From Rhizobiaceae bacterium (GTDB lineage: Bacteria; Pseudomonadota; Alphaproteobacteria; Rhizobiales; Rhizobiaceae): DNA of 64,000 nucleotides. Below the pieces are notes generated by a model that did no database searches, was not told the DNA's origin, and was given only the letters and a program-made list of their open reading frames with translations. The DNA is taken from the NCBI GenBank assembly GCA_016763155.1, contig JAESUH010000070.1:2507-66506 (forward strand). The letters are read 5' to 3'. Of the stretch, positions 4,436 through 51,914 are shown one piece after another; the stretch's first letter is position 1, and each line of letters opens with the position of its first letter. Both the position numbers and the translations under genes were made by a program.

Positions 4436-4487
4436 TTGGTTCCTCCTAATCCTCACCAATTACATATTCCAAATTCTGAAATACAAG

Positions 4488-4516
4488 TTGACACATTCGA
4501 AAACTTGAGTCACTAT
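4488..4516 (+). promoter_or_regulatory. Candidate sigma70-type promoter for xylF (-35 TTGACA, 17-nt spacer, -10 CACTAT)
   Basis: TTGACA at 4488-4493 and CACTAT at 4511-4516 in the ROK/xylF divergent intergenic region. The -10 is a weak match. Confidence 0.3.
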
Positions 4517-4646
4517 TTTTTTTGAGGCTCGAATTAAAGAGCTTTTTGATGGTTGTGGGAGGGAACTTCAACCATTTCGTTCACCAAAAATAGTGCGCCT
4601 TGGGCGTATTAACAATGAAATGCGTTATGCGCATAGGGAGAATTTT

Positions 4647-5696: not shown

Positions 5697-5723
5697 GCTG
5701 TCAGCTAATTGAACTAAATATAA

Positions 5724-5758
5724 GCCGCGCCACCTCATTCAGGCGGCGCGGTTTTTTA
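5724..5758 (+). terminator. Rho-independent hairpin plus T-tract after xylF (intra-operon attenuator)
   Basis: Stem CCGCGCC (5725-5731) / GGCGCGG (5745-5751), followed by TTTTTT (5752-5757). Confidence 0.7.
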
Positions 5759-5812
5759 TCACTCTTTTATTTGAGCCATTAGTGCTTTTATGAATTCACC
5801 CGGGAGAACTTT

Positions 5813-7135: not shown

Positions 7136-7136
7136 G

Positions 7137-7937: not shown

Positions 7938-7979
7938 TCTGTTTTTAACAGATTGCGGCAATATCGAGGAGTGGATCAA

Positions 7980-9440: not shown

Positions 9441-9441
9441 C

Positions 9442-10764: not shown

Positions 10765-10787
10765 TAGCGAAAAGGTGGGAGAAGCTC

Positions 10788-28354: not shown

Positions 28355-31300
28355 CTATTCAGCCGGTTCACCCACGGATTGATTTTTTGTCGCGTTTGCT
28401 GAGGGGGCCTTTAAGCCTTTCAACAGGTCGGCTTTATCGGCTTCCATTTTATCAACAGACGTTTCTTTGACCGGGCCATAGCCGCGCACTTTGGCGGGTA
28501 GGCTGGCGAGAGCCGTTATGGTAGCGCGGTTCTTTTTATCCATGCTTGGGATAAGGTCTGCCATCAGTTTTTCATAATCGGCGATGAGCTGGCGTTCCAT
28601 CTTGCGTTCTGGTGAATATCCAAAAATATCAAATGTTCCGCCGCGTAAGTTTTTAAATTTTGCCATGATTTTGAAAAGACGATGAGTCCAGGCACCGAAC
28701 TCTTTTTTTGCAGGACGTCCATTAGGAAGCGTTTCACCGCCAATTAATGGTGGGGCCAAATGGTAAGTCAGAGTGAAATCACCTTCGAACGTCTCTGCGA
28801 TTTGTTTGTCAAACGTACCATCGCTATGTAGCCGCGCCACTTCATACTCATCCTTATAGGATAGCAATTTGAAATAATTGCGAGCGATGGCATTGGTTAG
28901 ATCTTGTTTGCGCCCGATCTTTGCTTCGGCCTCTTTGGCACGGGTGACGAGTGCCCGATATTTATCCGCGAGCTTCTTATCTTGATAATCGATCAGGAAT
29001 TCTGCCCGACGATCAATGATTTGCTCCAGGGTTTCAGGCTCGCCAGATATCGTTTTTGCACCTGACAAAATTGCGTTGGCTTCGTCAGGATTAGCGGCAA
29101 ATCTACGGCCCCACAGGAATGCGGTTTTGTTGGCCTGAATGGCGATGCCGTTCAATTCTATCGCCTGTTCGATTGATGCATGTTTGAGGGGAAGAAGCCC
29201 CTTTTGACAGGCATAGCCGACCATCATGATGTTGGTTGAAATTGTGTCACCGCACACCAGTTCGGCGAGTTTGGTGAATTCCACCATGCCCGGATTATCG
29301 ATCGTATATTGCTTGATGGCATCTACAACGGATTGCTCTTTAAAATCAAAATCGCCGTCAAATACGAAATCTGAAACGGGGCTGAGATGGGTGTTGATAA
29401 CGGCGTTAGTGATATCTTTTGCATAAAGGGCAATGGAATTTTGATCTGCTGCCACTACGCTATCGGCTGCAAGCAGTAGGTTTGCTTCTCCGGTTATGAT
29501 TTGCGCTGATGAGACTAGATCAGGGGTTGGAGCCAGCCTTACATGGCTGAGCACGGCTCCGCCTTTTTGCGCCAGACCGGCCATATCGAGGATGATTGCC
29601 GCTTTATCTTCCAGATGAGCAGCCATGCCCAATATCGCGCCAATGGTTAGAACGCCGGTTCCACCAACGCCGGTGATGGCGATGTTGAAGACACCATTGA
29701 GCGGCAACACTTCTGGCTCCGGTAACGTTTCATCGCTTATTGCTGGCAATTGCGGCTTGCGCAAAGTGCCGCCATTTACGGTGACAAAGGAGGGACAGAA
29801 GCCGTTAATGCAGGAGAAATCTTTGTTGCAGCTGGATTGATTGATCTTACGCTTCCGGCCGAATTCTGTTTCCAGTGGTTCGACCGAAATACAGTTGGAT
29901 TGAACCGAACAGTCGCCGCAGCCTTCACAAACCAATGGGTTTATCACCACGTGTTTTTTTGGCGTTTCTGCCAAACCACGTTTGCGGCGGCGGCGCAATT
30001 CTGTGGCGCAGGTTTGATCGTAAATGATGGCGGTACAGCCCTCAACCTCGCGCAAGTGCTTTTGTACTTCGTCAAGATGTTCGCGAGAACGCATTTGCGT
30101 GCCATTGGCATAGGCGGAACGGGGGTAGCGGTCGGGATCATCCGATACCAACCAGACTTCCTTCACGCCTTCGGATTTTAATTGAAGTGATATCTGGACT
30201 GGGTTGAGATTGCCGTCATGTTGCTGACCGCCGGTCATAGCAACGGCGTCATTATAGAGAATTTTGTAGGTGACATTGGCACCTGAGGCGACCGCCTGGC
30301 GAATGGCCATGGAGCCTGAATGAAAATAGGTGCCATCGCCTAAATTTACGAACACATGTTTTTCATCAGTGAAGGGCGTAATGCCGGTCCAGCTAATGCC
30401 TTCACCGCCCATATGGGTGAAGGTTTCTGTGTGTCGGCCCATCCATACTGCCATGAAATGGCAGCCAATACCGGCCATGGCGCGACTGCCATCCGGCACT
30501 TTGGTCGAAGTGTTGTGGGGGCAACCAGAGCAAAAATGCGGTGTACGCACAATTGTATTTTCATGGGCAAGGCGAATATTGCTGCGCATTTCAAAATGGG
30601 CGAGTTTTTGTTTGATGAGCTTTTTCAAATTCGCTGGCAGATTGAGCTTCAACAAACGCGCAGCGATGATGCGCAGCGCAATGCCTGATGTCAGTTCATC
30701 ATGCAGGGAAATAATCTGTTCGCCGTTCTCGTCATATTTTCCGATTACGCGCGGCCGTTTTTTCTCAGGTAGGTTGAATAATTGATCCTTGAGTTGCCCT
30801 TCAATTATTTCTCGGCGTTCTTCGATAACAATAATTTCTTCTAGTCCAGTGGCGAATTCTCGAACACCTTCGGGTTCCAGAGGCCATGGCATGCGGACTT
30901 TAAACAGGCGAATTCCAAGCTTCTCTGCAGCGGCTTTATCTATGCCTAACTGGCGCAAAGCTTCACGCACGTTTTCATAGGCTTTGCCGGAAGAAATGAT
31001 ACCAAATCGTGGTTTCTTGCTGGTATAGATCAGTTGATTGACATTATTTGCCCGCGCAAAGGCAAGAGCTGCAAACACTTTGTAATCCTGAAGGCGGGCA
31101 TCCTGTTCAAGAATGCCATCGGGCCAACGTAAGTTCAGGCCGCCGGCTGGCATTTCAAAATCGGTGGGGATGATGAATTTTCTATCCTCGCCTGCAAGGT
31201 CTACAACGCCGGTGGTTTCAATCGTATCGGCAATCACCTTAAAGCCAACCCAGCAGCCGGAATAGCGGGACATGGCAATGCCAAGCAGACCAAGTTCGAT

Positions 31301-31918
31301 GAACTCATGCACGCTGGAAGGAAATAGCATGGGCATGGAAGCTGCAATAAAGCCGTGATCGGATTGGTGAGCAACGGTGGAAGAACGGGCCTGATGGTCG
31401 TCGCCAGCGAAGCATAATACGCCACCATGAGGCGATGTGCCGGCAGAATTGGCATGTTTGAAAACATCACCGGAACGATCAACACCCGGTCCCTTGCCGT
31501 ACCATAGGCCCAAAATACCGTCTTTGCGTGCTCCGGGAGACAGAAATAGTTGCTGGCTGCCCCAAATAGCGGTGGCTGCGAGATCTTCATTGACGCCGGG
31601 TTGGAAAACAACGTCGTATTCATCAAGCAGCTTTTTTGCGCTCTTTAACGCAAAATCATATCCACCAATTGGGGAGCCGCGATAACCGGAGATGAATGTG
31701 CCAGTGTTTAATCCAGCTTGTTGGTCTCTGCGCATTTGAACCATGGGTAGGCGAACTAGCGCCTGAGTGCCGTTCATGAAAACCTTGCCGGAAGTTGCCG
31801 TGTATTTATCCTCCAGTGACACGAGTTTTTTGGCATTTCCTACAGGTTCAATTTTTCCCACGGTATTTCCTTTTGCTCGATAAGTCGTTAATTTCATTAT
31901 GCGCTTTTTGAGAAACAT
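28355..31918 (-). CDS. Indolepyruvate:ferredoxin oxidoreductase family protein (fused alpha/beta, about 1180 aa)
   Basis: Conserved N-terminal KY...G.V...GTQALVRLP block. TPP-binding and 2x[4Fe-4S]-like Cys clusters (CEGCGDC; CNKDFSCINGFCPSF). Start (31918 or 31897) is uncertain. Confidence 0.88.
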   Translation of the reverse strand: MFLKKRIMKLTTYRAKGNTVGKIEPVGNAKKLVSLEDKYTATSGKVFMNGTQALVRLPMVQMRRDQQAGLNTGTFISGYRGSPIGGYDFALKSAKKLLDEYDVVFQPGVNEDLAATAIWGSQQLFLSPGARKDGILGLWYGKGPGVDRSGDVFKHANSAGTSPHGGVLCFAGDDHQARSSTVAHQSDHGFIAASMPMLFPSSVHEFIELGLLGIAMSRYSGCWVGFKVIADTIETTGVVDLAGEDRKFIIPTDFEMPAGGLNLRWPDGILEQDARLQDYKVFAALAFARANNVNQLIYTSKKPRFGIISSGKAYENVREALRQLGIDKAAAEKLGIRLFKVRMPWPLEPEGVREFATGLEEIIVIEERREIIEGQLKDQLFNLPEKKRPRVIGKYDENGEQIISLHDELTSGIALRIIAARLLKLNLPANLKKLIKQKLAHFEMRSNIRLAHENTIVRTPHFCSGCPHNTSTKVPDGSRAMAGIGCHFMAVWMGRHTETFTHMGGEGISWTGITPFTDEKHVFVNLGDGTYFHSGSMAIRQAVASGANVTYKILYNDAVAMTGGQQHDGNLNPVQISLQLKSEGVKEVWLVSDDPDRYPRSAYANGTQMRSREHLDEVQKHLREVEGCTAIIYDQTCATELRRRRKRGLAETPKKHVVINPLVCEGCGDCSVQSNCISVEPLETEFGRKRKINQSSCNKDFSCINGFCPSFVTVNGGTLRKPQLPAISDETLPEPEVLPLNGVFNIAITGVGGTGVLTIGAILGMAAHLEDKAAIILDMAGLAQKGGAVLSHVRLAPTPDLVSSAQIITGEANLLLAADSVVAADQNSIALYAKDITNAVINTHLSPVSDFVFDGDFDFKEQSVVDAIKQYTIDNPGMVEFTKLAELVCGDTISTNIMMVGYACQKGLLPLKHASIEQAIELNGIAIQANKTAFLWGRRFAANPDEANAILSGAKTISGEPETLEQIIDRRAEFLIDYQDKKLADKYRALVTRAKEAEAKIGRKQDLTNAIARNYFKLLSYKDEYEVARLHSDGTFDKQIAETFEGDFTLTYHLAPPLIGGETLPNGRPAKKEFGAWTHRLFKIMAKFKNLRGGTFDIFGYSPERKMERQLIADYEKLMADLIPSMDKKNRATITALASLPAKVRGYGPVKETSVDKMEADKADLLKGLKAPSANATKNQSVGEPAE

Positions 31919-33705: not shown

Positions 33706-34260
33706 GTGTTATGTTATTGTCGAATAAATATTATGGTTAGAATTCTTACAATTGGGCTATCTTTTTACTGGTTCTTTTTTTGGTTGATGAATGCGTTGGA
33801 CAAGGTCTTAAACAGACAAGACCTTGGGATATTGCGTTGGAATGGCCGGGAACGATCCGGGCAATTTGCTGGCTATCTGGAGAAGATGAACCTGTCGGTT
33901 GATCTGTATGTCCCGCTAATGATTTTTGCTTTTGTGGTTGAACTGGCTGTGGCATTAGCGTTTTTGCGTGTTCTTGTTGTTTTGATAAAACAGCGACACA
34001 TCGTTCGGTTTATGCCGCAGGAATGTCTGAAGCTCCCGATATTTCTCAGCATAATGGTGTTCACCGGCTTTTCGGTGTTCGATGTTGTTGCCGGTGATCG
34101 CGCAGAATTGCTGGAGCATGGCACCTATATGTGTCTGGTTGGCGTGACATGGATTATTGCCAGCTTTGAAAGCGTGCTCGATGTAGTGCCGCAGCGTGAC
34201 TACGCAGGAACGGAGCGACGCTCAGAAACCATGACTGATCGGCGTGGGGATGTGGATTAA
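33706..34260 (+). CDS. Hypothetical integral membrane protein (about 4 TM segments)
   Basis: Hydrophobic segments only; no family recognised. Start may be ATG 33733. Confidence 0.45.
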   Translation: MLCYCRINIMVRILTIGLSFYWFFFWLMNALDKVLNRQDLGILRWNGRERSGQFAGYLEKMNLSVDLYVPLMIFAFVVELAVALAFLRVLVVLIKQRHIVRFMPQECLKLPIFLSIMVFTGFSVFDVVAGDRAELLEHGTYMCLVGVTWIIASFESVLDVVPQRDYAGTERRSETMTDRRGDVD

Positions 34261-40455: not shown

Positions 40456-40630
40456 GATTGCCTATCCGTTTATTTTAACGCGCAATTTTCCCGAAAACTG
40501 GTTTCCACTTTTCGGATTGTGCTCTGGTTTCCTCAGTTTAGGCATGAATTAAAAAACCGCTTGCGCAATCGTGCGACAAAATATGTCGTTTTCAGGTGGT
40601 CAGGCTTGTGGAAATTTAGCCGCACAAATC

Positions 40631-41419
40631 CTATTTGGCGATCACCAATTCAGAAATAATCTCCGATTGCAGCCAGCCGGTGATGTGGCCTGCAACTCTG
40701 GCTGCTGCCGTATCTGCATCCTGCATGGTGGCTGCCATCTCGCAAAGGGTGGCAAAGCTTTGGCCTTGCTGCACCAAATCGATCAACATGCCTTCTTCGG
40801 CATTCAGGGGCCGATACTGGCACATCATGTTGTTGCGCCAGGCTAAGGTATAAAGGGGCTCATCAAGATTTTCAGGTTGCTCTGGTGTCTCGTCTTCAAC
40901 CAGAGCCATATATATGGCGAGCGCGTTGGTTTGTTGTTTTAGCAAACAACAGGAAGAATGTAGTTTGAAAGTTAAGCCAGTGACGAGTTCGGGCGGGATT
41001 GCTGCCAGATCATCCATGGTGGCGACATCATCATTGGAAGCGTCAAAGGCATCTTCAATGGCTTTTTCTATGGCTGCAATTTCGGCAAGAACCGGATGGG
41101 CACCAGCACTTTCATGATCGGAAAGGAATTTTGGAAAATATCTGCCAAACCAGCGCACATTTGGGTGGTTTGAGGGGTAGGCTTCTACATATTGAGCGGC
41201 CAGTTGATAAAATTGTTCATCGCCAACGAATTTCCATGTGTTCTCATAGTCTCCTGACAAAATTTCGATCAGGCGCGACAGATAGGCAAATTGATAAACG
41301 CCGAAGCGTTTTTCAGCAGTTGTATTTTCGGGCACTGAAATTCGCGGTAACGTGCCGTCCGTGCGTTTAAGAATATCGCTTTGCATTTGCGACTGAAGTT
41401 CTGCCAGTTTTTTTGCCAC
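40631..41419 (-). CDS. DUF2063-family partner protein of the MNIO enzyme (BufC/MbnC-like)
   Basis: DUF2063 pattern (RFGVYQFAYLSRLIEIL...YP...FG.YFP.FL). Its GTG start shares one base with the upstream TAG stop (TAGTG). Confidence 0.85.
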   Translation of the reverse strand: MAKKLAELQSQMQSDILKRTDGTLPRISVPENTTAEKRFGVYQFAYLSRLIEILSGDYENTWKFVGDEQFYQLAAQYVEAYPSNHPNVRWFGRYFPKFLSDHESAGAHPVLAEIAAIEKAIEDAFDASNDDVATMDDLAAIPPELVTGLTFKLHSSCCLLKQQTNALAIYMALVEDETPEQPENLDEPLYTLAWRNNMMCQYRPLNAEEGMLIDLVQQGQSFATLCEMAATMQDADTAAARVAGHITGWLQSEIISELVIAK

Positions 41420-42276
41420 TATGCTGCTGTCTCCAATTGTTCATGCGACAATACCCCAGATGCAATATGGCGGGCACGGTTTAATTCGTCCAACAATTCG
41501 GCTAGGGGCGGGATGTTATCGTCGCGCTCAATCATAGTCGATACAGGGCCGAAGCGCCTTAGGGCTTTTTCATAGAGGTCAAATACTTCGTCACAAACCG
41601 GCTGGTCGTGGGTATCGATGAGCACATCGTCGCCTTCGCTGTGGCCTGCGAGATGGAATTGCACAACCCGCTCAACCGGGATTTGGTCAATGAAATTGCC
41701 GTCGTCAAACTGGTGGTTTTGTCCTGAAACAAAGACGTTGTTTACATCCAGCAATAGCCAGCAATCGGCGCGTTTGGCAATTTCTGCAACAAAGGTCCAT
41801 TCATCCATTTCGGATTCTTCGAATTCGATATAGGAGGAAACGTTTTCAATGGCGATGCGGCGACCGAGGAAATCCTGCACTTGTTCAATGCGCGAGGCCA
41901 CGTGGTTCAACGCCTCTTCTGTATAGGGAATGGGCAGCAGATCGTGGAGATTTACCCCATGCACACCGGTCCAGCATAAATGATCAGAAATCCACTTTGG
42001 ATTAACCCGATCAGCCAGGGTTTTTAATCTCGTCAGATAATCCATATTCAAGGGAGCAGTTGATGCAATCGACATGGAAACCCCGTGCATGACGAGGGGA
42101 TATCGCTCCATAATTTGATCCAGCATTTTCAGCGGGCGACCACCTTCGACCATGTAGTTTTCAGAGATTATCTCAAACCAGTCGATGGGCAATTCAGATG
42201 TCGCTTCAAGAATTTCGGTATAATGCTGAGGTCTTAACCCCAGCCCAAAACCGAGAAATGGAGGCTTTTCAACCAT
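41419..42276 (-). CDS. DUF692 / UPF0276 multinuclear non-haem iron oxidase (MNIO; BufB/MbnB-like)
   Basis: LGFGLGLRPQHY, DWFEIISENYM, HGVSMSI, ISDHLCW, IENVSSY, LLLDVNN: the hallmark DUF692 TIM-barrel blocks. Confidence 0.9.
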   Translation of the reverse strand: MVEKPPFLGFGLGLRPQHYTEILEATSELPIDWFEIISENYMVEGGRPLKMLDQIMERYPLVMHGVSMSIASTAPLNMDYLTRLKTLADRVNPKWISDHLCWTGVHGVNLHDLLPIPYTEEALNHVASRIEQVQDFLGRRIAIENVSSYIEFEESEMDEWTFVAEIAKRADCWLLLDVNNVFVSGQNHQFDDGNFIDQIPVERVVQFHLAGHSEGDDVLIDTHDQPVCDEVFDLYEKALRRFGPVSTMIERDDNIPPLAELLDELNRARHIASGVLSHEQLETAA

Positions 42277-42365
42277 GGCGTGATTCCCTGCTAGAGTATT
42301 TTTAAAAAAAATGGAAGGCCGGTTTCCTGAATGGTGTGATTACAACCATAAATTATTGTGAATTT

Positions 42366-42399
42366 GAAAGCAAAAACTCGTCCGGGAAACCGGACGAGT
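42366..42399 (-). terminator. Strong hairpin plus U-tract between the precursor gene and the MNIO gene (attenuator)
   Basis: Perfect 10-bp stem ACTCGTCCGG / CCGGACGAGT (42376-42385 / 42390-42399) with a 4-nt loop. On the minus strand it is followed by TTTTGCTTTC. Confidence 0.65.
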
Positions 42400-42429
42400 G
42401 GCAATAGTCAAAGGTGAAACCAATGAGAA

Positions 42430-42696
42430 TTACATTTGTGTAAGTGTGCCGCCTTTAGCTGTGCAATCTGCTTTGGTCATTTCCAAGAAGCCCTGGCCGC
42501 TGCAGCTGTTCAAGCCTTTGCAAGAAGATTTTGCAGTTTTACAAGCGCTCTGGCCTTTGCAAGAGTTTACGCCAAAGCACTGAATTTTTGCATCCTGTGC
42601 CATAGAAGGGGTAGCCATAGTCATTGCTGAACCTGCAATGGCAAGTGCAAATGCTGCTGCTGCAAGTGTAGCGCCTGATTTTCCGGTATGTTTCAT
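42430..42696 (-). CDS. Bufferin-like RiPP precursor: Sec signal peptide plus a 6-Cys core (BufA2 / 6-Cys class, DUF2282-related)
   Basis: MKHTGKSGATLAAAAFALAIAGSAMTMATPSMA | QDAKIQCFGVNSCKGQSACKTAKSSCKGLNSCSGQGFLEMTKADCTAKGGTLTQM. GGAG RBS 9 nt upstream of ATG 42696. Lies directly upstream of the DUF692-DUF2063 pair. Confidence 0.8.
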   Translation of the reverse strand: MKHTGKSGATLAAAAFALAIAGSAMTMATPSMAQDAKIQCFGVNSCKGQSACKTAKSSCKGLNSCSGQGFLEMTKADCTAKGGTLTQM

Positions 42697-42830
42697 AGAA
42701 CCAATTCTCCAAATAGTGTTTTCCCAAAACGGGTAAGTCACTTTGAGCAAGTTCAATGATGACTATCAATTAACGCTTTCGTGAAGTCGGGAATATAGTT
42801 CCATATTTTCCATAAGCTATTGATTTATAA

Positions 42831-42862
42831 TAAAAAATATCCGGGAGAATGCTCCCGGATAT
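42831..42862 (-). terminator. Rho-independent terminator of the SCP2 gene transcript
   Basis: 11-bp perfect stem ATATCCGGGAG / CTCCCGGATAT (42837-42862) with loop AATG. On the minus strand it is followed by a T-run (complement of A-run 42832-42837). Confidence 0.7.
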
Positions 42863-42963
42863 GAGGTTTTTGCGGCCTGTCGGCCAAATAGTAAATCAGA
42901 AATAAAGTATTCGTGAAATATTGCCGTTTTGGGCTGAATTCAACTTTGAATAGTGACTTGGGT

Positions 42964-43260
42964 TTAAAGGATTGAACTCAATTTCATGGCAACACTCATG
43001 TCGCCGTCGACCCGAATTTTTCCCTGCATAAAGGCTGCGGTGGGGTCCAGATCGCCTGCGATCAGCTCGTTTAAGGTTTCAAGGTCGAGGGATACGGTGC
43101 AATCAGCATCGCCACCATCGGTAGAAACTGTATTGGGAGTGGATGCACCATCAACAAAGACGGAGCCGTCATCACCACAATCGAATTTTACAGTGGCGCC
43201 GAGGCCGCTGGAATCGCCGACTTTGGCACGGATTGATTCTGCTGCTGCTTCAATGGTCAT
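42964..43260 (-). CDS. SCP2 sterol/lipid-carrier domain protein
   Basis: 98 aa. SCP2 pattern (TVKFD...D..F..G....P.AAFMQGKI.V.GDM..AMKL). Confidence 0.85.
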   Translation of the reverse strand: MTIEAAAESIRAKVGDSSGLGATVKFDCGDDGSVFVDGASTPNTVSTDGGDADCTVSLDLETLNELIAGDLDPTAAFMQGKIRVDGDMSVAMKLSSIL

Positions 43261-43362: not shown

Positions 43363-44985
43363 TCACTTCATCAACACGTCACCAAATGATTCCCGCAAAA
43401 GGTTTTTGCGGATTTTTCCAGTGGCATTGCGAGGGATCTCATCGGTAATTTGTACCGCATCCGGTATCCACCATTTTGCAACTTTTCCCTCATAGAATTT
43501 CTGCATATCTTCGGTGGTTACGGTTTTGCCTTCAACGGGAACAACAATTAGTAATGGGCGCTCTTCCCATTTTGCGTGTCGTGCTGCAATGACGGCTGCG
43601 TCTGCAATATTTGGATGGGCCATAGCGAGACCTTCCAGTTCAACGGACGAAATCCATTCGCCGCCAGATTTGATGATATCCTTGGAGCGATCACGAATGG
43701 TCATGTTGCCATCGGCATCGATGACTGCCACATCGCCGGTTGGGAACCAGCCATCGACCAGTGGGTCACCACCTTCACCGCTGAAATATTCTGAAATGAC
43801 CCATGGGCCACGGCAGTAAAGATCACCCTGGGCAATTCCGTCATTTGGCAATTGGTTTGCTTCTTCGTCAAACACGCCAAGTTCTATGCCAAAGGGCGGG
43901 CGCCCCTGATTGATGCGCAGTGCGTTCTGCTCTTCCTTAGACAGGGACAGGTGCTTGTATTTCAAATTGTTGACGGAACCCAGCGGGCTAAGCTCTGTCA
44001 TGCCCCATGCATGAATAACATCCACATCATAATCATCTCTGAAGGTATCAATCATGGAAGGTGGGCAGGCCGAGCCGCCAATGACCGTGCGGTCCATATG
44101 CGGTAATTTGGTATTGGTATCGCTCAAATGTTGCAACAGTCCAGACCAAATGGTGGGAACGCCTGCGCTAAAGGAGACCTTCTCCCTATTGAGTAATCCT
44201 ACCAGACTTTTGCCGTCTAGGCCGGGACCCGGCATGACCAGTTTTGCGCCGACCAACGGTGCGGAATAGGCAATGCCCCAGGCATTGACATGAAACATCG
44301 GGACCACGGGCAATACGCTGTCGCAAGCCGAGAGGTTCATGACATCAGGCGTGGCGCTCATAATGGTGTGGAGCAGGGTAGAGCGATGAGAATAAAGCGC
44401 GCCCTTTGGATTGCCGGTAGTACCAGAAGTGTAACACAGGCTGGAGGCGTCTTTTTCATCCAAGTCAGCTGACCAACTTGCGTTTTCGTCTCCTGTTGCC
44501 AGAAAATCTTCGTAAGACTCCATCCATGGATGAGCGGCGGCCAGTTCCTCGTTATGTGGTTCCATCAGCACGAACAATTCAACGCAGGTTAATTTATCAC
44601 GCAAGGCATCAACCAGTGGAAGGAACGTCTGATCAAAGAAGATGATGCGGTCTTCGGCGTGGTTGATGATGTAGATAAATTGTTCCGGGAACAGGCGCGG
44701 ATTGAGAGTGTGGCAGACAAGGCCAGCGCCGGGGATTGCGTAATATAATTCAAGGTGGCGATGGTTGTTCCAGGCGATGGTGGCAATACGATCTGATTTG
44801 TTCATGCCACGCTTTAAAAGAGCTGAACTAAGTCGCAATGCTCTTGCGCGAACCTCTGCATAATTTGTTCGGGTCTCACCGCCATTGGTGTTTACCGAGA
44901 TTACTTCACCATCACTGTGATATTTCGCGGCGTGGTCAATTATTCCCGAAATGAGCAATTGTTGCTCCATCATCAAACCATGCAT
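43363..44985 (-). CDS. Medium/long-chain acyl-CoA ligase (AMP-binding)
   Basis: YTSGTTGNPKGA motif. Start ATG 44985 follows GGAGGA with a 6-nt spacer. The ORF-track extension to 45177 is AT-rich, non-conserved and would overlap ilvA. Confidence 0.88.
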   Translation of the reverse strand: MHGLMMEQQLLISGIIDHAAKYHSDGEVISVNTNGGETRTNYAEVRARALRLSSALLKRGMNKSDRIATIAWNNHRHLELYYAIPGAGLVCHTLNPRLFPEQFIYIINHAEDRIIFFDQTFLPLVDALRDKLTCVELFVLMEPHNEELAAAHPWMESYEDFLATGDENASWSADLDEKDASSLCYTSGTTGNPKGALYSHRSTLLHTIMSATPDVMNLSACDSVLPVVPMFHVNAWGIAYSAPLVGAKLVMPGPGLDGKSLVGLLNREKVSFSAGVPTIWSGLLQHLSDTNTKLPHMDRTVIGGSACPPSMIDTFRDDYDVDVIHAWGMTELSPLGSVNNLKYKHLSLSKEEQNALRINQGRPPFGIELGVFDEEANQLPNDGIAQGDLYCRGPWVISEYFSGEGGDPLVDGWFPTGDVAVIDADGNMTIRDRSKDIIKSGGEWISSVELEGLAMAHPNIADAAVIAARHAKWEERPLLIVVPVEGKTVTTEDMQKFYEGKVAKWWIPDAVQITDEIPRNATGKIRKNLLRESFGDVLMK

Positions 44986-45141
44986 ATGAATTCCTCCAAC
45001 TAAAATCTGCTTTAAGTCTATTCCAATAAGTGGTGGTGTGTGAAGGATATTTTGATGAATTGCAAATCTATTTTTGTTGAAGAATTCGTGGGATTCAAAT
45101 AAGATTGTCTGAAATATTGAGCCAATATATGGAAAATAAAT

Positions 45142-46398
45142 ATGGCTGATTTTGTAATCGAAACTGCCCGGGTTCATGCAGACTTAAAAGCGGTACTTGA
45201 ACCCACGCCGCTGCAATATAATCAATATCTTAGCGATCTGCATGATGCGGATATTTGGCTGAAGCGGGAAGATTTGTCTCCGGTTCGCAGTTATAAAATT
45301 CGCGGGGCCTATACGTTTTTCAATGAATATTTGAAGCAGGACAATTCAATTGAGCATTTTGTTTGTGCTTCTGCTGGCAATCATGCGCAGGGTTTTTCCC
45401 ATGCTTGCCGCAATTACAAAAAAAATGGCGTGATATTTATGCCGATGACAACGCCACAGCAAAAAATTATGAAAACCAAATCCTTTGGCGAAACTTATGT
45501 GGAAGTTGTTCTGGTGGGGGACAGTTTTGACGAGGCCAATCAGGCCGCCCTTAAATATTGCAAAGAAAAAGGCGGAGTTATGGTGCCGCCTTTTGATGAT
45601 GAACGGATCATCCTTGGGCAGGCGACAATTGCTAAGGAAATATTGGAACAATTGCCGGATGGGACTCGGGTTGATTTAATGATCCTGCCGGTTGGTGGTG
45701 GTGGTCTGGCGGCAGGTGTTACCCAATATTTGAAGGAACGATCTCCCGATACAGAATTTTATTTTGTTGAACCGGACAACGCTCCGAGCCTGCATAATAG
45801 CTTGAAGGCTGGCGAGCGGATTAAATTGCTTGGCATTGATAATTTCATTGATGGAGCAGCGGTTGCAGAAATTGGGGCGATAAATTTTGGCTACCTGAAA
45901 GGGTTTGATGCATCGCAGATTGTGCTTGCACCAACCAATGGCGTTTGCGCCACAATGATTGAGATGCTCAATATTGAAGGCATCGTGCTTGAGCCCGCAG
46001 GCGCTTTATCCGTCGATGCGCTGAAACGATTGCCCAAGGAACAGGTGGTTGGGAAAACCATTTGCTGCGTTACGTCTGGTGGGAATTTTGATTTCGAACG
46101 GCTGCCGGAAGTCAAAGAGCGCGCATTGAAATTCTCAGGTTTGAAGAAATATTTCATATTGAAATTACCTCAAAGGCCGGGTGCATTGAAGGACTTTCTT
46201 TTAATGCTTGGACCCAATGATGATATTGCGCGGTTTGAATATTTGAAAAAATCGGCTCGAAATTTTGGTTCGGTATTGATTGGAATTGAAACCACCAATG
46301 CCGAAAATTTCGAAGTTCTTACAGATAAATTTGATGAAGGTGGGCTTGGGTTTCAGGACATTACAGATAATGATCTTGTGGCAAGTCTGGTGATATAG
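45142..46398 (+). CDS. ilvA: Threonine ammonia-lyase (short form, one regulatory domain)
   Basis: PLP Lys motif (SYKIRGA), GNHAQG, GGGGL loop, about 418 aa. Confidence 0.88.
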   Translation: MADFVIETARVHADLKAVLEPTPLQYNQYLSDLHDADIWLKREDLSPVRSYKIRGAYTFFNEYLKQDNSIEHFVCASAGNHAQGFSHACRNYKKNGVIFMPMTTPQQKIMKTKSFGETYVEVVLVGDSFDEANQAALKYCKEKGGVMVPPFDDERIILGQATIAKEILEQLPDGTRVDLMILPVGGGGLAAGVTQYLKERSPDTEFYFVEPDNAPSLHNSLKAGERIKLLGIDNFIDGAAVAEIGAINFGYLKGFDASQIVLAPTNGVCATMIEMLNIEGIVLEPAGALSVDALKRLPKEQVVGKTICCVTSGGNFDFERLPEVKERALKFSGLKKYFILKLPQRPGALKDFLLMLGPNDDIARFEYLKKSARNFGSVLIGIETTNAENFEVLTDKFDEGGLGFQDITDNDLVASLVI

Positions 46399-46404
46399 GA
46401 AAAA

Positions 46405-46902
46405 ATGATGGCTGATAAAATGAATCCAATTCGGGATACAGATGACGATGCGCGCATTCTTGCTCGCAAACTGATTGCGGAGGCAACTTTTGGCGCTATT
46501 GCGGTTCAGGAACCGGATACCGGCGTGCCGCTGGTGAGCCGTGTGGCGATTGCCACTGACCCTGAAGGCAGGCCGATATTTCTGGCCTCTGAACTTTCCA
46601 TTCATTCGAAATGCCTCGAACAAAACGGCAAGTGCTCTGTGCTTTTGGGAGAGCCCGGCAAGGGGGATCCGCTGGCCCATCCGCGCATAACCCTGATTTG
46701 CAATGCGGTGAAAATCGAACGCGGCTCAAAAGAAAGGGACCGCCTGCGCGATCCCTTTCTGGAGCAACACCCAAAGGCGAAGCTCTATATAGATTTTGGT
46801 GACTTCCATTTCTACCGATTGGAGATTGAACGGGCCAATCTCAATGGTGGATTTGGTAAAGCCTATCTTCTAACCGCGGAAGACTTTGCCGTTAATTCTT
46901 AA
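46405..46902 (+). CDS. Pyridoxamine 5'-phosphate oxidase-like / HugZ-family FMN- or haem-binding protein
   Basis: Split-barrel family pattern; 165 aa. Its 3' end overlaps the convergent allantoicase gene by 33 nt. Confidence 0.7.
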   Translation: MMADKMNPIRDTDDDARILARKLIAEATFGAIAVQEPDTGVPLVSRVAIATDPEGRPIFLASELSIHSKCLEQNGKCSVLLGEPGKGDPLAHPRITLICNAVKIERGSKERDRLRDPFLEQHPKAKLYIDFGDFHFYRLEIERANLNGGFGKAYLLTAEDFAVNS

Positions 46903-47913
46903 TCTGCTGACACCGCCATCTGGGCGGATGTTGAAGCGGATATGGGTGATGGGTTTTTGCGAGACAATCTTTTCAGAGTCATATTGATGGACGAAATCCA
47001 TCTGTAGTTTTTGCCCTGGCAAGATGACTTCCCAATTTTCTGAGGCTTCCAATTCTTCCGGTGAAAGATCTGTATTATGATCTGGCAAATATGCCCCAAG
47101 CACTTCGCCGGTTTCTGGATAGTTTCCTTTAAAATGCGCTGTGTCGATGGTAACCGATGATATGGTGCCGGCATGGCCCAGGCGGATGATGGTCCAGTCA
47201 TAGCCCGGCCCGCGGCGACGTGCTGTTTCCCAGCCATCGCCCATATTCACACCACGACCTGGTGTAAGCAGCTTTTCCGGTGAACCGTAATGTGAATCGG
47301 ACCAATGCAAGGGTTGTGCGCCGTGAAACAGGAAGGCCAGGTCGATCTCTTGATCGTCGGCCACTTTGCTCCAGTCAAAATGACTTTGGCCATAGACCCG
47401 CAACCGGGCAACGCCGCCATCTGGATAAATATGCAGGCGCAAATGGGTCCAGATTTCTTCACCCATTTTTTCAGGATCATCGATCGGTTTGAAATGATGA
47501 GAGTCGGGGCCAAGTTCCTTGGAGGATAATATCTCCTGCCAATCGGAATTCTCGTCCGGGGTTTCACCTTCCTCCAATTTCACTGCTTCGATGGAAGCTG
47601 CTGGCGCGTTATTTCCGGTAAAATGCGAGGTGTCGATATTAAAACCTGCGATTGAACCGGGGCGTGCCAATTGGATGATGGCCCAGTCATGGCCCGGTGT
47701 GCGTTTGCGTCGGGATTCCCAACCATCCATCCATTTGCCATTGTCATCAAATTTATCAGGAATGAAAACCGGAGCATCATCGCTCAACATGCGAGAGAGC
47801 GGCGCAAAAAATTCGTCCGATGTGGCGATAGCGCGCGCGCCAAGGCTGGCGGAGGCGAGGTTGATGGTGCCATTTACGAAATCAGGAAGGGGTGTTTGAT
47901 CAGGTTTTTGCAA
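46870..47913 (-). CDS. alc: Allantoicase
   Basis: Duplicated allantoicase repeat (SDEFFAP...GKWMDGWESRR and GDGWETARRR). Confidence 0.9.
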   Translation of the reverse strand: MQKPDQTPLPDFVNGTINLASASLGARAIATSDEFFAPLSRMLSDDAPVFIPDKFDDNGKWMDGWESRRKRTPGHDWAIIQLARPGSIAGFNIDTSHFTGNNAPAASIEAVKLEEGETPDENSDWQEILSSKELGPDSHHFKPIDDPEKMGEEIWTHLRLHIYPDGGVARLRVYGQSHFDWSKVADDQEIDLAFLFHGAQPLHWSDSHYGSPEKLLTPGRGVNMGDGWETARRRGPGYDWTIIRLGHAGTISSVTIDTAHFKGNYPETGEVLGAYLPDHNTDLSPEELEASENWEVILPGQKLQMDFVHQYDSEKIVSQKPITHIRFNIRPDGGVSRLRINGKVFRG

Positions 47914-47921
47914 GGCTAATT

Positions 47922-49340
47922 TTACTCCGGTAGTAGGTCGTTAAGGCGCAGACGGGCGATTTTTTCCACTTGCTGACAAGCGGTAGAAAATTCGGCATCG
48001 GCGTCATTGTTAATACGTGTTTTGAAGGCGCTCAATATTTCTGATTTGGATAGACCTTTTACCGCGATGATGAAAGGGAAACCAAATTTGGCGACATAGT
48101 CATTGTTGAGGCCGGTGAAAGTGGTGCGCTCTTCATCGGTAAGTGCGTCGAGACCGGCGGAGGCCTGTTCGCTGGTAGATTCAGCGGTGAGTTGCTTGGC
48201 AGCAGCTAGTTTTCCGGCCAGATCGGGGTGAGCGTTTAGGACGCCCAATCGTTCTTCATGGCTGGCAGAACGGAACTTTCTTGCCAAAGCCGAGTGAAGA
48301 CCTGCGACACTATCGTGGGCGGGTCCAAGTTCATCGGCATGGGCGCGTCCTGCAATCCAAGGGGAATTTTCAAAAACTCCGCCATATGCCTTGAGAAATG
48401 TTTGCTGCTCCATCCGGCTTGGTCGTTCGAACGGCCTATAGGGATGATGTTCAATCCAGTGATTGGCAATATCGATGCGACGCGGAAACCATACATTCTC
48501 GTGGCCCATGGCATATTCGATAAAACGCTTCAGCGCAGCAATACGGCCGGGACGCCCGACAAGGCGGCAATGGAGGCCGATATTGAATAATTTTGGTGCG
48601 CCTTCGCAGCCTTCCTCATAAAGAATGTCGAAAGAATCTTTTAGATAAGTGTAAAACGGATCGCCGCTGTTAAATCCCGCAGGGATGGCAAAGCGCATAT
48701 CATTGCTATCGAGGGTATAGGGAATGATTAGTAGCGGCTTTTCCCCGGTATCATGCCAATAGGGCAAATCGTCGGAATAAGAATCGGAGCAATAGGTAAT
48801 GCCTTTCTGCTCGGAAACCAGATCAACCGTATTTATCGAACAACGACCGGTGTACCAGCCCTGTGGTGCGCTGCCGGTTACTTCCTTGTGCAGCCGGATG
48901 GCTTCTACAATATCGGCGCGTTCATCCTCTGGCGCATAATCTTTATACTCAATCCATTTTAGGCCGTGGGAGGCTATTTCCCAACCGGCATCCTGCATGG
49001 CGGCAACCTGTTCCGGCGCGCGTGCAAGGGCTGTTGCCACTCCATAAACTGTGACCGGGATTTCCTTGCCGGTGAATAATTTGTGCAGACGCCAAAAGCC
49101 TGCGCGTGCACCATATTCATAGATGGTTTCCATGTTCCAGTGGCGTTGCCCCTGCCACTGGGCGGCCCCTACGATCTCGGAAAGAAATGCTTCAGATGCG
49201 GCATCCCCATGCAGAACATTGTTTTCGCCGCCTTCTTCATAATTGATGACGAACTGAACCGCTATTTTTGCGCCATTGGGCCATTTGGGGTCGAGACCGT
49301 TCGGGCCATTTCCGCGGAAATCTCTTGGATATCTGTTCAT
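47922..49340 (-). CDS. puuE: Fusion protein: allantoinase PuuE (polysaccharide-deacetylase type) plus OHCU decarboxylase
   Basis: The N-terminal ~300 aa show the PuuE pattern (WPNGAKIAVQFVINYEEGGEN). The C-terminal ~165 aa show the UraD pattern (HPDLAGK, ST.EQASAGLD, KFGFPFIIAVKG). Confidence 0.88.
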   Translation of the reverse strand: MNRYPRDFRGNGPNGLDPKWPNGAKIAVQFVINYEEGGENNVLHGDAASEAFLSEIVGAAQWQGQRHWNMETIYEYGARAGFWRLHKLFTGKEIPVTVYGVATALARAPEQVAAMQDAGWEIASHGLKWIEYKDYAPEDERADIVEAIRLHKEVTGSAPQGWYTGRCSINTVDLVSEQKGITYCSDSYSDDLPYWHDTGEKPLLIIPYTLDSNDMRFAIPAGFNSGDPFYTYLKDSFDILYEEGCEGAPKLFNIGLHCRLVGRPGRIAALKRFIEYAMGHENVWFPRRIDIANHWIEHHPYRPFERPSRMEQQTFLKAYGGVFENSPWIAGRAHADELGPAHDSVAGLHSALARKFRSASHEERLGVLNAHPDLAGKLAAAKQLTAESTSEQASAGLDALTDEERTTFTGLNNDYVAKFGFPFIIAVKGLSKSEILSAFKTRINNDADAEFSTACQQVEKIARLRLNDLLPE

Positions 49341-49427
49341 GTTTGTGCCGAAATAATTGAGATTGCAGTTTTATCGAAATTGCCATTGCCAAATAAGGTC
49401 AAAGTGTAAAAACTATATGTCACAAAA

Positions 49428-49439
49428 CCATGCGCATGG
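49428..49439. promoter_or_regulatory. Perfect 12-bp palindrome CCATGCGCATGG in the puuE/uraH divergent promoter region
   Basis: Read directly from the sequence; the function is inferred only. Confidence 0.35.
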
Positions 49440-49490
49440 GATGGAACCCAGTCAAGCGTATGGTAAGAAAAAATGAGGGACAATTAAAAT

Positions 49491-49847
49491 ATGAGCGGCT
49501 TCCTTACGACCCATGTTCTGGACACAGCCAGCGGAAAACCCGCAAGTGGCTTGGCAATAACGCTATATCGCGACAATAACGGCGAATTGGAAAAATTGAA
49601 ATCGGTAGTGACCAATGAAGATGGCCGCTGCGATGGACCAATTCTGGACCAGTCCGAATTTGCAATTGGCACCTATGAGTTACACTTTATGGCGGGAGAT
49701 TATCTCAAACGTCAGGGTGGTGATTTGCCTGACCCACTGTTTTTGGATGTGGTGCCAATTCGCTTTGGTATTGCAGATAAAACATCTCATTATCATGTGC
49801 CTCTGCTGATTTCAGCCTTTGGCTATTCAACCTATCGGGGGAGCTAA
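49491..49847 (+). CDS. uraH: 5-hydroxyisourate hydrolase (transthyretin-like)
   Basis: [14 protein letters not shown]-terminus and C-terminal YRGS signature. Confidence 0.93.
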
Positions 49848-49850
49848 ACC

Positions 49851-51098
49851 ATGTGGCCAATAGCTTGGGACTGGATGAGTCTTGCAATTCGCTGGGTGCA
49901 TATTATCACCGGCATTGCGTGGATCGGATCGTCGTTTTATTTCATCGCGCTTGATCTTAGCCTGAAAAAACACAAAGGCCTGCCCGAAGGGGTTGGCGGT
50001 GATACCTGGCAGGTGCATGGGGGTGGTTTTTACCACATGCAAAAATATACAGTAGCGCCTGCCTCCATGCCGGAAGAGCTGACATGGTTCAAATGGGAAT
50101 CCTATGCCACATGGATTTCCGGCTTCTTTATGATTTGCGTTCTCTATTACGGTTCATCAGAGCTGTTTTTGATTGATCGCAATGTTGCGGATTTAAGCCA
50201 GTGGCAGGCCATCGGGCTTGGCTTTGGCGGCATGTTGCTTGGCTGGGTGCTTTATGATCAGCTTTGCAAATCTCCCATCGGCAAGAACGACAATCTGCTT
50301 TCCATATTGGTGTTTATCTTTACGGTGGCAATTGGCTGGGGCTTTTTGCAGGTGTTTTCCGGGCGTGGGGCATTTGTCCACACTGGCGCGCTGATTGCGA
50401 CCATCATGTCAGCCAATGTGATCATGATTATCATTCCTAACCAGAAGAAAACCGTTGCGTCCCTGCTGGCAGGAGAAGCGCCTGATCCGTCTCTTGGCCT
50501 GCAGGCCAAGCAGCGTTCAATGCATAATAATTATCTCACCTTGCCGGTGTTGTTCCTGATGCTATCGAACCATTATCCGCTGGCTTATGCCACCAAATAT
50601 GCGTGGATCATCATCGCGCTGGTGCTGGTGATTGGCGTGGTAATTCGCCACTTTTTCAACATGCATCATGCCAAAAAGGGTGAGCCTTTCTGGACATGGC
50701 TGGTGGCGACGATTTGCTTCATTCTCATCATGTGGCTGTCACAGGCGGGACCTGTAAACCATGAGGAAGCCGCAAGCTCTACCCACGCGCCAACGGCAAT
50801 TGAAGAGAAATTGGCAAGTGCCGAAAATTTCGAAATGGTGCGCGACATAGTGCTTGGCCGCTGTTCCATGTGCCACGCACAAGAACCCGGCTGGGAAGGC
50901 ATCCCTTTCCCACCCAAAAGCGTGGTGCTGGAAGAAGACAAAGACATCATCCGCCACGCAGAACTAATCTACAAACAAGCCGCAATCACCAACGCCATGC
51001 CGCCGGGGAATTTAAGTTTTATTACGATGGAAGAGCGTGCTGTTCTGGCAAAATGGTATGAGGAGGCGATAGGGTCTCCACGGCATTTTTTGTGGTGA
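49851..51098 (+). CDS. puuD: Membrane-bound urate hydroxylase PuuD (C-terminal cytochrome c domain)
   Basis: Polytopic N-terminal domain (IRWVHIITGIAWIGSSFYF) plus a C-terminal CSMCH haem motif. Lies in the ureide cluster. Confidence 0.85.
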   Translation: MWPIAWDWMSLAIRWVHIITGIAWIGSSFYFIALDLSLKKHKGLPEGVGGDTWQVHGGGFYHMQKYTVAPASMPEELTWFKWESYATWISGFFMICVLYYGSSELFLIDRNVADLSQWQAIGLGFGGMLLGWVLYDQLCKSPIGKNDNLLSILVFIFTVAIGWGFLQVFSGRGAFVHTGALIATIMSANVIMIIIPNQKKTVASLLAGEAPDPSLGLQAKQRSMHNNYLTLPVLFLMLSNHYPLAYATKYAWIIIALVLVIGVVIRHFFNMHHAKKGEPFWTWLVATICFILIMWLSQAGPVNHEEAASSTHAPTAIEEKLASAENFEMVRDIVLGRCSMCHAQEPGWEGIPFPPKSVVLEEDKDIIRHAELIYKQAAITNAMPPGNLSFITMEERAVLAKWYEEAIGSPRHFLW

Positions 51099-51128: not shown

Positions 51129-51914
51129 CTATTGAATATTAGGCACAGGAATCCAGCTGTGCTCAGATTTTTGGTGAAGGATGCCTCTGAAGTCGATTGT
51201 TGTTGTTCCTGTTTGCTTTAGCTCTATCCGCAAAGGGTAATTTGGGCTTAGTGCTTGGCTTAATGGCTTCATATTAATCCCATTATGTTTGCTTCCATCA
51301 GTCAATACGTAGCCTGGGTCGAAACCACCAATAAATGGGCTGCCTCCCATCTTCCAGGTCAGTTCTCCTTCAGAATTTCCAATGAGCACCAAAAAGTGTG
51401 GATTCGGCTCCAGTAGATGGGATGCGTTAACAACTATTTTTTTGGTTCCGTTTTCTTCTGTTAACACTGAGTAGGAAAGATTTGAAAAACCCTGATGTTG
51501 TGGTGTGAACGATGCATTGCCTTGTGTTACGCTTACGATCTGAGCAATTGCAGGATCTAATCCAATTGTATGCATGTCGATATAAAGGGTTTGCATGAGA
51601 ACTGGCGGCATTGCTGTTCCGTCCACACGTACAGGTATTATTCTTGTATGGCCTTTTGACGCCGAGTAGAGAGCGTTTTGCCATTCGAGTCTCACCATGC
51701 CACTGTCTAAACTATTCGCCGATACGAAGAAGAAAACAAATTCTGGAGCCTCCAACCCTTTGTTCATTTGGTCAATGATTCCATCACCTGGTTTGATTGA
51801 CCATGAGTCATAAAAAACTTGATCTTCACCAAATATCCCTGTCAATTTGACCGCAACAGCTTCCACTATTGGTTTGTCGCTAAAGTTATGACTTAGAAAT
51901 ATTTTATGAGACAT
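51129..51914 (-). CDS. TIR-domain protein with a C-terminal domain of unknown function
   Basis: The N-terminal ~125 aa fit the bacterial TIR pattern (KIFLSHNFSD..., FVFFFVSANSLDSGMVRLEWQNAL with a candidate catalytic Glu). The gene and its upstream spacer look more AT-rich than the neighbours. Confidence 0.8.
   Translation of the reverse strand: MSHKIFLSHNFSDKPIVEAVAVKLTGIFGEDQVFYDSWSIKPGDGIIDQMNKGLEAPEFVFFFVSANSLDSGMVRLEWQNALYSASKGHTRIIPVRVDGTAMPPVLMQTLYIDMHTIGLDPAIAQIVSVTQGNASFTPQHQGFSNLSYSVLTEENGTKKIVVNASHLLEPNPHFLVLIGNSEGELTWKMGGSPFIGGFDPGYVLTDGSKHNGINMKPLSQALSPNYPLRIELKQTGTTTIDFRGILHQKSEHSWIPVPNIQ

Follow-up and report, generated by a model that had tools for sequence, protein, structure and literature searches.

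The 64,000-nucleotide stretch of a Rhizobiaceae genome analysed here (contig JAESUH010000070.1; the window) is identical in sequence to metagenome scaffolds labelled TULL18-1. Three co-directional genes on its minus strand, evident at 40631-42756 both from the table of open reading frames (ORFs) and from the sequence itself, encode a six-cysteine precursor peptide, an MNIO (DUF692) enzyme and a DUF2063 partner protein. We consider it very probable that they form a canonical buf2ABC operon, which would direct the biosynthesis of a bufferin 2. Chance can be excluded as an explanation for the three-gene locus (E-values of 1e-19 to 1e-118).

The placement in the Buf2 class (BUF_6/12Cys, 'Cys-Lys') is based on NCBIfam models and not on a direct alignment with Caulobacter BufA2; it follows from scores above the curated cutoffs of NF050166 and NF050167 for the precursor and the MNIO, and above the gathering score of PF09836 for the partner. 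Judged at the sequence level, the locus displays every Buf2 trait that can be read there and falls outside the Buf1, methanobactin and oxazolin systems on all of theirs. The first-pass annotation of this DNA had described a bufferin-like MNIO operon for a ribosomally made, post-translationally modified peptide (RiPP), consisting of a Sec-exported six-Cys peptide together with DUF692 and DUF2063 proteins, and had proposed a check with profile hidden Markov models. This check was run; all three proteins match (BufA2, BufB and DUF2063 models) and the description is borne out.

The same annotation ranked the locus as the strongest candidate for a novel system in the window, which is overstated since the family received its name and a partial characterisation in 2024-2026 (PMC11626156, PMC12452194, PMC13097082), is covered by curated NCBI models and is very large. 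A search with the BufA2 peptide matched 732 proteins, mostly from alphaproteobacteria, and a profile run against 1.84 billion representatives recovered 2,445 members of the family with E <= 1e-3, or ~2,400 representatives at 50% identity. The two-domain forms found among them agree with the published description of Buf2 precursors as '6/12 Cys' (PMC12452194). The locus thus adds one environmental member to a known family of RiPPs that bind copper in the periplasm, without any new lesson on the logic of the system. Its modest value is that of a clean Buf2 cluster of the minimal three genes, which stems from a marine lineage of low GC content and comes with a testable mass prediction.

Precursor, MNIO enzyme and DUF2063 partner

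The precursor gene bufA2 lies at 42430..42696 on the minus strand and encodes 88 amino acids (aa). The maximal ORF is longer (42756..42430, 108 aa) and begins with a TTG, which is not likely to be the start; the ATG at 42696 is plausible, with a GGAGA Shine–Dalgarno sequence nine bases before it, and gene callers run independently on the metagenome scaffolds of identical sequence arrived at the same 88-aa product. The span first given for the operon (40631-42756) accordingly holds for the genes, while its right-hand end, the upstream in-frame TTG, is ~60 nt too far out. The peptide matches the NCBIfam model NF050166, Cu_RiPP_BufA2 ('BufA2 family periplasmic bufferin-type metallophore'), with 95.6 bits against a cutoff of 60 and over profile positions 1-78 of 79. 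An 88-aa peptide with a signal peptide and six cysteines, as originally annotated, is indeed what the sequence contains, the signal peptide being judged by eye. The N-terminal part combines a basic n-region (MKHTGKSG) with a hydrophobic stretch of ~20 residues and an SMA|QD site fitting the -3/-1 rule, and by inspection neither a lipobox Cys nor a twin-Arg motif is present in it. These features predict a Sec-type signal peptide of residues 1-33 (42696..42598, minus strand), with cleavage at SMA|QD placed by inspection, and hence a putative core of 55 aa, QDAKIQCFGVNSCKGQSACKTAKSSCKGLNSCSGQGFLEMTKADCTAKGGTLTQM.

The six cysteines occupy residues 40, 46, 52, 59, 65 and 78 of the precursor and all are invariant in an alignment of 114 homologues. 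At each of the four central positions of the same alignment, at least 89% of the sequences have Lys directly after the Cys, and such 'Cys-Lys' motifs are the mark of modified Cys in the Buf2 class (PMC13097082). The window peptide carries them at Cys46, Cys52 and Cys59, three of the four central positions.

The MNIO bufferin maturase gene, bufB, lies at 41419..42276 on the minus strand and encodes 285 aa, in which the hallmark blocks of DUF692 proteins listed in the earlier annotation (IDWFEIISENYM, ISDHLCW and IENVSSY) are all found. The protein matches Pfam PF05114 (MbnB_TglH_ChrH) with E = 1e-115 and NCBIfam NF050167 ('MNIO family bufferin maturase') with 392.6 bits against a cutoff of 310. 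Its scores with the ApyH model (103.6, cutoff 400) and the ChrH model (55.9, cutoff 600) stay far lower. The iron ligands of MbnB are H54, H90, E133, D163, N166, H192, D208, H210 and E239 (PMC9060507), and all nine positions are kept in BufB as H64, H99, E144, D177, N180, H208, D221, H223 and E250; H64 was assigned through the conserved His of 3BWW and the other eight by alignment with MbnB 7TCR. BufB has ERDD (D252-D253) at the site that is ERDF in 3BWW, a homologue of the EGKCG class. An Asp after the catalytic Asp (Asp251 of BufB2) characterises MNIOs of the Cys-Lys class, including those acting on BufA2 substrates, while the Lys-Cys enzymes have Phe (PMC13097082). The Asp-Asp dyad of the window enzyme matches the Cys-Lys class.

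The third gene, bufC (40631..41419, minus strand), encodes a DUF2063 partner (PME type 1) of 262 aa with a C-terminal domain resembling a RiPP recognition element (RRE). It scores 69 bits with Pfam PF09836 (DUF2063; cutoff 27.2), and a homologue is labelled 'HvfC/BufC family' in UniRef. A single-sequence search of the PDB with BufC gave no match and a profile search only a weak one, to 3DEE (E = 0.027). An AlphaFold2 model built with 108 homologues has a mean predicted local distance difference test score (pLDDT) of 93.9 and a predicted template modelling score of 0.89. Its best Foldseek match in the PDB is NGO1945 (3DEE; E = 2.2e-6, probability 1.0), which serves as the reference for DUF2063 partners, followed by TglI, the partner of the MNIO TglH (E = 1.5e-5), and its C-terminal ~70 residues match TbiB1 and 6JX3, leader-binding RRE proteins of lasso-peptide pathways, with probabilities of 0.95-0.99. 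The model thus gives BufC the domain plan reported for BufC1, in which an RRE-like domain comes after a helical DUF2063 domain.

These results also bear on two other classes of copper peptide to which an MNIO operon might belong. Assignment to the oxazolin/fontiphorin-type captophorins (HvfABC, 'Lys-Cys') could be argued from the HvfB model, which is the second-best NCBIfam match of the enzyme, and from 3BWW, its closest solved structure (E = 4.5e-49). However, neither protein reaches the respective cutoff (295.9 bits against 360 for HvfB, 37.4 against 142 for HvfC), the peptide is devoid of EGKCG repeats and places Lys after Cys and not before it, and the enzyme has Asp-Asp at the position where Lys-Cys enzymes have Asp-Phe; we regard this assignment as exceedingly improbable. 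The same can be said of a methanobactin-like chalkophore, secreted for copper acquisition, which the membership tests refute. An MNIO acting on the Cys of a small peptide and a weak homology with MbnB (E = 4e-13) would be in line with it, but the score with the MbnB model TIGR04159 is 77.9 where 325 is the cutoff, the precursor combines a Sec signal with a 55-aa core in place of the short leader and core of MbnA, the partner is a DUF2063 protein and not MbnC, and genes for a TonB receptor, a MATE exporter and MbnPH are absent within the 64 kb. MbnC, the methanobactin partner, is not known to be a DUF2063 protein. The initial description of DUF692 plus DUF2063 as the machinery of methanobactins and bufferins alike is therefore correct for bufferins and loosely worded for methanobactins. 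The assignment to Buf2 is the one retained in what follows.

Operon architecture and regulatory sequences

A scan of one genome per species yielded more than 590 relatives of the MNIO, and the best 80 loci (61-79% identity) come from Rhodobacteraceae, many families of Hyphomicrobiales and some gamma- and betaproteobacteria. The order A-B-C is found in ~76 of the 80, with a BufA2-like ORF directly upstream and a BufC-like ORF directly downstream of the MNIO gene. The gene that comes after bufC, an M24 creatinase-like gene in the window, differs in almost all of these loci, and the Buf2 unit is for this reason best defined as three genes without DoxX. A fourth conserved gene (DoxX/BufD) was considered and rejected on the same grounds; the archetype buf2 operon lacks DoxX/BufD as well. 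Many related loci contain a pair of BufA2-like ORFs, in most cases lying in tandem upstream of bufB, where the window has one (L006, L023, L029, L031-L033, L035, L037, L038, L040, L041, L043-L045, L048, L049, L054, L062 and L070).

At the junction of bufB and bufC the sequence reads gcaTAGTGgca, the G of the TAG stop codon being the first base of the GTG start codon, precisely as first annotated. Overlapping stop and start codons occur at this junction in 57 of 76 related loci, 53 times as a 4-nt overlap of the ATGA type and four times as a 1-nt overlap like that of the window. Because the overlap is kept across related loci, translational coupling of bufB and bufC can be viewed as a conserved trait, which supports the co-translation that the first-pass annotation had deduced from the single junction.

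The 153-nt spacer between bufA2 and bufB contains, ~30 nt past the bufA2 stop codon (42366..42399, minus strand), a hairpin resembling an intrinsic terminator, ACUCGUCCGG-UUUC-CCGGACGAGU followed by UUUUUGCUUUC. It consists of a perfect GC-rich stem of 10 bp and a U tract, with a ∆G of -23.5 kcal/mol (z = -5.4), and none of 200 shuffled sequences was as stable. The hairpin is kept in relatives with a compensatory change from T-A to C-G, and the bufA2-bufB spacers of the related loci are unusually structured in general, 59% of them having z < -2 compared with 17% of the controls. No second precursor or other small gene was found in the spacer, only implausible TTG ORFs of 27-37 aa. The simplest reading, guided by what is customary in RiPP operons, is that the hairpin acts as a leaky terminator or attenuator, or as a stabiliser of the 3′ end, and would in this way raise the ratio of precursor to enzyme.

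A strong canonical terminator in this position could also mean that the locus is silent or decaying, with intact genes but with bufBC blocked by the terminator and the peptide exported unmodified. In favour of such a situation, a consensus scan detected no sigma-70 promoter in front of bufB, and other genomes contain precursor genes that stand alone (PMC12452194). It is nevertheless very unlikely: all catalytic residues of BufB are intact, the hairpin is conserved in functional-looking loci across families, and the locus is syntenic and conserved in related genomes, with constraint at the protein level. A functional operon with a partially permissive hairpin is thus the reading that we prefer.

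On the other side of bufA2, the upstream SCP2-domain gene (42964..43260) ends in a bidirectional terminator-like hairpin (42837..42862, minus strand) with an 11-bp stem and a T run. Two related genomes retain its structure despite base changes, and this terminator is the 5′ boundary of the buf2 unit. A second palindrome, TCACGAAT-N5-ATTCGTGA (42896..42916), is located between the stop codon of the SCP2 gene and its terminator; it is longer than the one described below, related to it in sequence and conserved in three genomes, being perfect in L084, the locus of a related metagenome-assembled genome, and having two mismatches in the window.

Between the SCP2 terminator and the ribosome-binding site of bufA2, alignment with the loci L084 and L086 reveals a conserved block of 33 nt, CCCGACTTCACGAAAGCGTTAATTGATAGTCAT (42759..42791, minus strand), a candidate promoter or operator of bufA2. 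Only three isolated differences separate it from its counterparts in these two relatives, in which BufC identity is no more than 67-68%. The block includes a palindrome-like site, TCACGAAAGCGTTA (42785..42772, minus strand), which is a one-mismatch copy of TCACG-N4-CGTGA. Allowing up to one mismatch, this motif occurs in 25 of 77 bufA2 upstream regions compared with 0-2 of 76 in five sets of control windows. Enrichment is confined to the spacer of 4 nt, the other spacers of 2-11 nt giving 0-3 matches. All carriers are alphaproteobacteria (L001, L003, L007-L010, L013, L014, L017-L021, L024, L026, L028, L030, L031, L045, L046, L048, L052, L057 and L080 among the related loci), with Zhengella, Methylocella and Bradyrhizobium as cultivated examples, and in three loci the palindrome directly precedes a -35 element of the ECF16 type (ECF, extracytoplasmic function). 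A literature search found no description of the motif, and no conserved regulator gene was found beside the loci that carry it, the clusters of neighbouring ORFs being lineage-specific synteny groups and spurious high-GC ORFs.

We regard TCACG-N4-CGTGA as a candidate operator. One can go a step further and propose, tentatively and at somewhat less than even chances, that many alphaproteobacterial Buf2 operons are controlled by a transcription factor that binds this 14-bp sequence upstream of the promoter, either alone or together with SigF. If this is true, the factor would reveal the signal that switches on bufferin 2 outside Caulobacter. Palindrome and hairpin together constitute small, testable leads on Buf2 regulation, and the comparison over 80 loci, with the hairpin close to the precursor gene and the palindrome upstream of it, could guide expression studies across the whole family.

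As to the promoter itself, a published survey places sigma and anti-sigma genes in Buf1 clusters and not in Buf2 clusters. The consensus of SigF/ECF16 promoters, (T/C)GTAAC-N17-CGAA, is located upstream of bufA (PMC3511200, PMC8315932), and TGTAAC is present in 21 of the 77 bufA2 upstream regions and in none of the controls, the SigF-type motif being clear in a subset of loci. The window contains TGGAAC-N16-CGAA (42803..42778), which departs from the consensus by one mismatch and one base of spacing and whose -35 element is kept in neither of the syntenic relatives; an ECF16/SigF promoter was not adopted for the window in view of this degeneracy. Reading the site as an EcfG-type promoter (GGAAC...CGTT) was rejected because of the 22-nt spacer. 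A consensus scan of the minus strand detected no sigma-70 promoter; TTGATA-N18-CAAAGT is possible as a weak one.

Genomic setting and the remainder of the window

A metagenome-assembled genome annotated as Hyphomicrobiales (GCA_002401155.1) has its buf operon at the same chromosomal place as the window, and the two share the flanking SCP2, acyl-CoA ligase, threonine dehydratase and creatinase/ABC-transporter genes. The shared flanks show that the operon has been passed on vertically and does not reside on a mobile element. Both syntenic relatives carry a gene of the arginase family (PF00491) between bufC and the M24 gene (6836..7795 in L084, 6836..7798 in L086), at a place where the window has a gap of 175 nt (40456..40630), the result of a lineage-specific gain or loss.

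Apart from the buf operon, the window contains ordinary metabolic genes, for xylose use, branched-chain amino-acid transport, purine catabolism and fatty-acid oxidation. No metal-resistance, sigma-factor, anti-sigma or DoxX gene was found in the 64 kb, nor were known RNA families or tRNAs. A xylose-type utilisation cluster at 3206..11843 comprises an ROK regulator, a sugar ABC transporter, an FGGY kinase and xylose-isomerase-like TIM-barrel proteins, and a cluster for purine/urate catabolism at 46870..51098 comprises allantoicase, an OHCU decarboxylase-deacetylase fusion and a membrane urate oxidase. Between the latter and amino-acid ABC transporter genes lies a stand-alone gene (51129..51914, minus strand) for a 261-aa protein with an N-terminal TIR domain (PF13676, E = 2e-21) and an uncharacterised C-terminal half; from its domain and its weak PADLOC matches (PDC-S66, TIR-NLR) it is possibly a defence or NADase gene. 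The large 1187-aa product of 28355..31918 (minus strand) looks like an indolepyruvate/2-oxoacid:ferredoxin oxidoreductase fusion, with domains of the TPP-enzyme, POR and DUF6537 types. An ORF of 184 aa that follows a glutathione S-transferase gene (33706..34260, plus strand) has no match in Pfam or PADLOC. The maximal ORF of the acyl-CoA ligase (43363..45177, minus strand, 604 aa) overlaps the start of the divergent threonine dehydratase gene (45142..46398, plus strand); since the gene callers choose a start giving 540 aa on the identical scaffold, the 604-aa form is probably an over-extension.

Proposed role and comparison with known systems

The data can be assembled into a model for the production of this bufferin. 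Transcription would start in the 140-nt region that separates the SCP2 terminator from bufA2 and that holds the conserved TCACG-N4-CGTGA-like block, to which we ascribe a putative regulatory role. The conserved hairpin after bufA2 would let only part of the transcripts pass into bufBC, leading to an excess of precursor, and BufB and BufC, whose reading frames overlap, would be translationally coupled and act as a complex in the manner of BufB1C1 and MbnBC. In the cytoplasm BufC, by homology, would recruit the substrate to the multi-iron BufB, which would convert Cys13, 19, 26 and 32 of the core into 5-thiooxazoles by an O2-dependent four-electron oxidation, each at the cost of 4 Da. This chemistry is taken over, on the strength of homology, from the mass data for Caulobacter Buf2 and from nuclear magnetic resonance (NMR) work on Buf1, fontiphorin and relatives. 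In Caulobacter Buf2 each of the four central Cys loses 4.03 Da, CysI and CysVI are unmodified and a band appears at 305 nm (PMC11626156); 5-thiooxazoles have been demonstrated by NMR in related MNIO/DUF2063 products (PMC13097082). After Sec export, signal peptidase would cut behind SMA33 and the outer cysteines Cys7 and Cys45 could form a disulfide. For the core, which has a calculated average mass of 5653.5 Da when unmodified and reduced, four losses of 4.03 Da would add up to about 16.1 Da, or to about 18.1 Da together with the Cys7-Cys45 disulfide. The periplasmic product of ~5.6 kDa would then sequester excess Cu(I)/Cu(II) and protect the cell under copper stress, as suggested by Caulobacter, where buf2 shows copper-specific induction and a copper-growth phenotype (PMC11626156).

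Several points weigh against parts of this model. Even in the archetype the chemistry of Buf2 is inferred, without NMR, and its authors state that the modification has not been chemically determined (PMC12452194). To call the six-Cys class barely characterised chemically, as the first reading of this DNA did, is consequently fair, its modifications being known from mass shifts and absorbance at 305 nm only (PMC12452194) and its chemistry still being assigned by analogy only. Within the window peptide, the fourth central cysteine (Cys65, CysV) is followed by Ser, a residue found there in 4 of the 114 homologues, 108 of which have Lys. Cys65 may be a poorer substrate for modification, and the locus offers a naturally occurring variant, Cys-Ser, at one of the modification sites. 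Cleavage of the signal peptide at SMA|QD was placed by inspection. The AlphaFold model of the precursor is of low confidence (pLDDT 59.5) and too uncertain for a fold search; it places Cys40 in a β-strand and Cys78 in a short helix, and the disulfide proposed for bufferins likewise joins a first Cys in a β-strand to a last one in a short helix (PMC11626156). Neither a copper-resistance gene nor an SigF/NrsF pair nor DoxX accompanies the operon in the 64 kb, so that the link to copper is drawn entirely from homology. Finally, buf operons elsewhere are driven by an ECF16 regulon whose responses extend to chromate, cadmium and HOCl (PMC3511200, PMC8315932).

This last point raises the question of whether the same biosynthesis might serve another purpose, the product serving in the periplasm as a sink for, or redox buffer against, oxidants (HOCl, H2O2) or thiophilic metals other than copper (Cd, Cr, Au). 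In Caulobacter the buf operons were initially discovered as targets of SigF, with chromate, dichromate and cadmium as inducers (PMC3511200), in Brucella HOCl is the signal for ECF16 sigma factors of this type (PMC8315932), and a DUF692/DUF2063 operon of S. meliloti is not induced by H2O2, Cd or chromate, indicating that inducers vary by species (PMC6180224). The absence of copper genes near the locus would also fit. On the other hand, reporter fusions of bufA1 and bufA2 answer to Cu and not to Fe, Zn or Mn, a copper-growth phenotype and direct binding of Cu(I)/Cu(II) have been shown for the founders of the family (PMC11626156), and fontiphorin and its relatives are tied to copper detoxification as well (PMC13097082). 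We therefore consider a role unrelated to copper rather unlikely and retain a copper-sequestering bufferin 2 as the product of the operon. Six-Cys chemistry and regulation outside Caulobacter are matters of the whole Buf2 family and are not special to this locus.

Among known systems, methanobactin biosynthesis (MbnABC) has in common with the window a multi-iron MNIO with a conserved set of iron ligands that oxidises Cys of a ribosomal peptide to a copper ligand. It differs in its oxazolone-thioamide product, which is secreted for copper acquisition, in its dedicated transport genes and in its MbnC partner. The HvfABC oxazolin, fontiphorin and bulbicupramide systems (PMC11252979, PMC13097082, PMC12538549) pair, like the window, an MNIO with a DUF2063/RRE partner and form copper-binding heterocycles on Cys. 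The HvfABC/EGKCG 'Lys-Cys' captophorin branch holds the closest solved structures of both the enzyme (3BWW) and the partner (3DEE); its EGKCG-repeat precursors and Asp-Phe enzyme set it apart from the window. Bufferin 1 (buf1ABCD, or gig for gold-induced genes) shares the MNIO and DUF2063 proteins, a Sec precursor, 5-thiooxazole and periplasmic copper binding. Buf1 precursors belong to PF10048 (DUF2282) and have four Cys, two of them modified, and their operons usually include DoxX and often SigF/NrsF. Membership in Buf1 was rejected for the window, whose peptide has six Cys and no match to PF10048 and which is without DoxX.

The buf2ABC operon of Caulobacter vibrioides (CCNA_03001-02999; PMC11626156, PMC12452194) is the studied archetype and has the same plan. 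The window comes from an uncultured marine alphaproteobacterium, probably one of the Hyphomicrobiales, its BufB has a best match of 79% identity in the genome collection, and in contrast to Caulobacter it has no SigF/NrsF within 64 kb, a degenerate and non-conserved ECF16-like promoter, a conserved palindromic block upstream of the operon, and Ser in place of Lys after CysV. Like the window, the Caulobacter operon has no DoxX and 'lacks a bufD1-like gene' (PMC11626156). Both have the same gene order, with a six-Cys Sec precursor followed by an MNIO and a DUF2063 protein, both combine Cys-Lys motifs in the peptide with an Asp-Asp dyad in the enzyme, and the peptide and the enzyme of the window pass the models that are named after the buf2 system.

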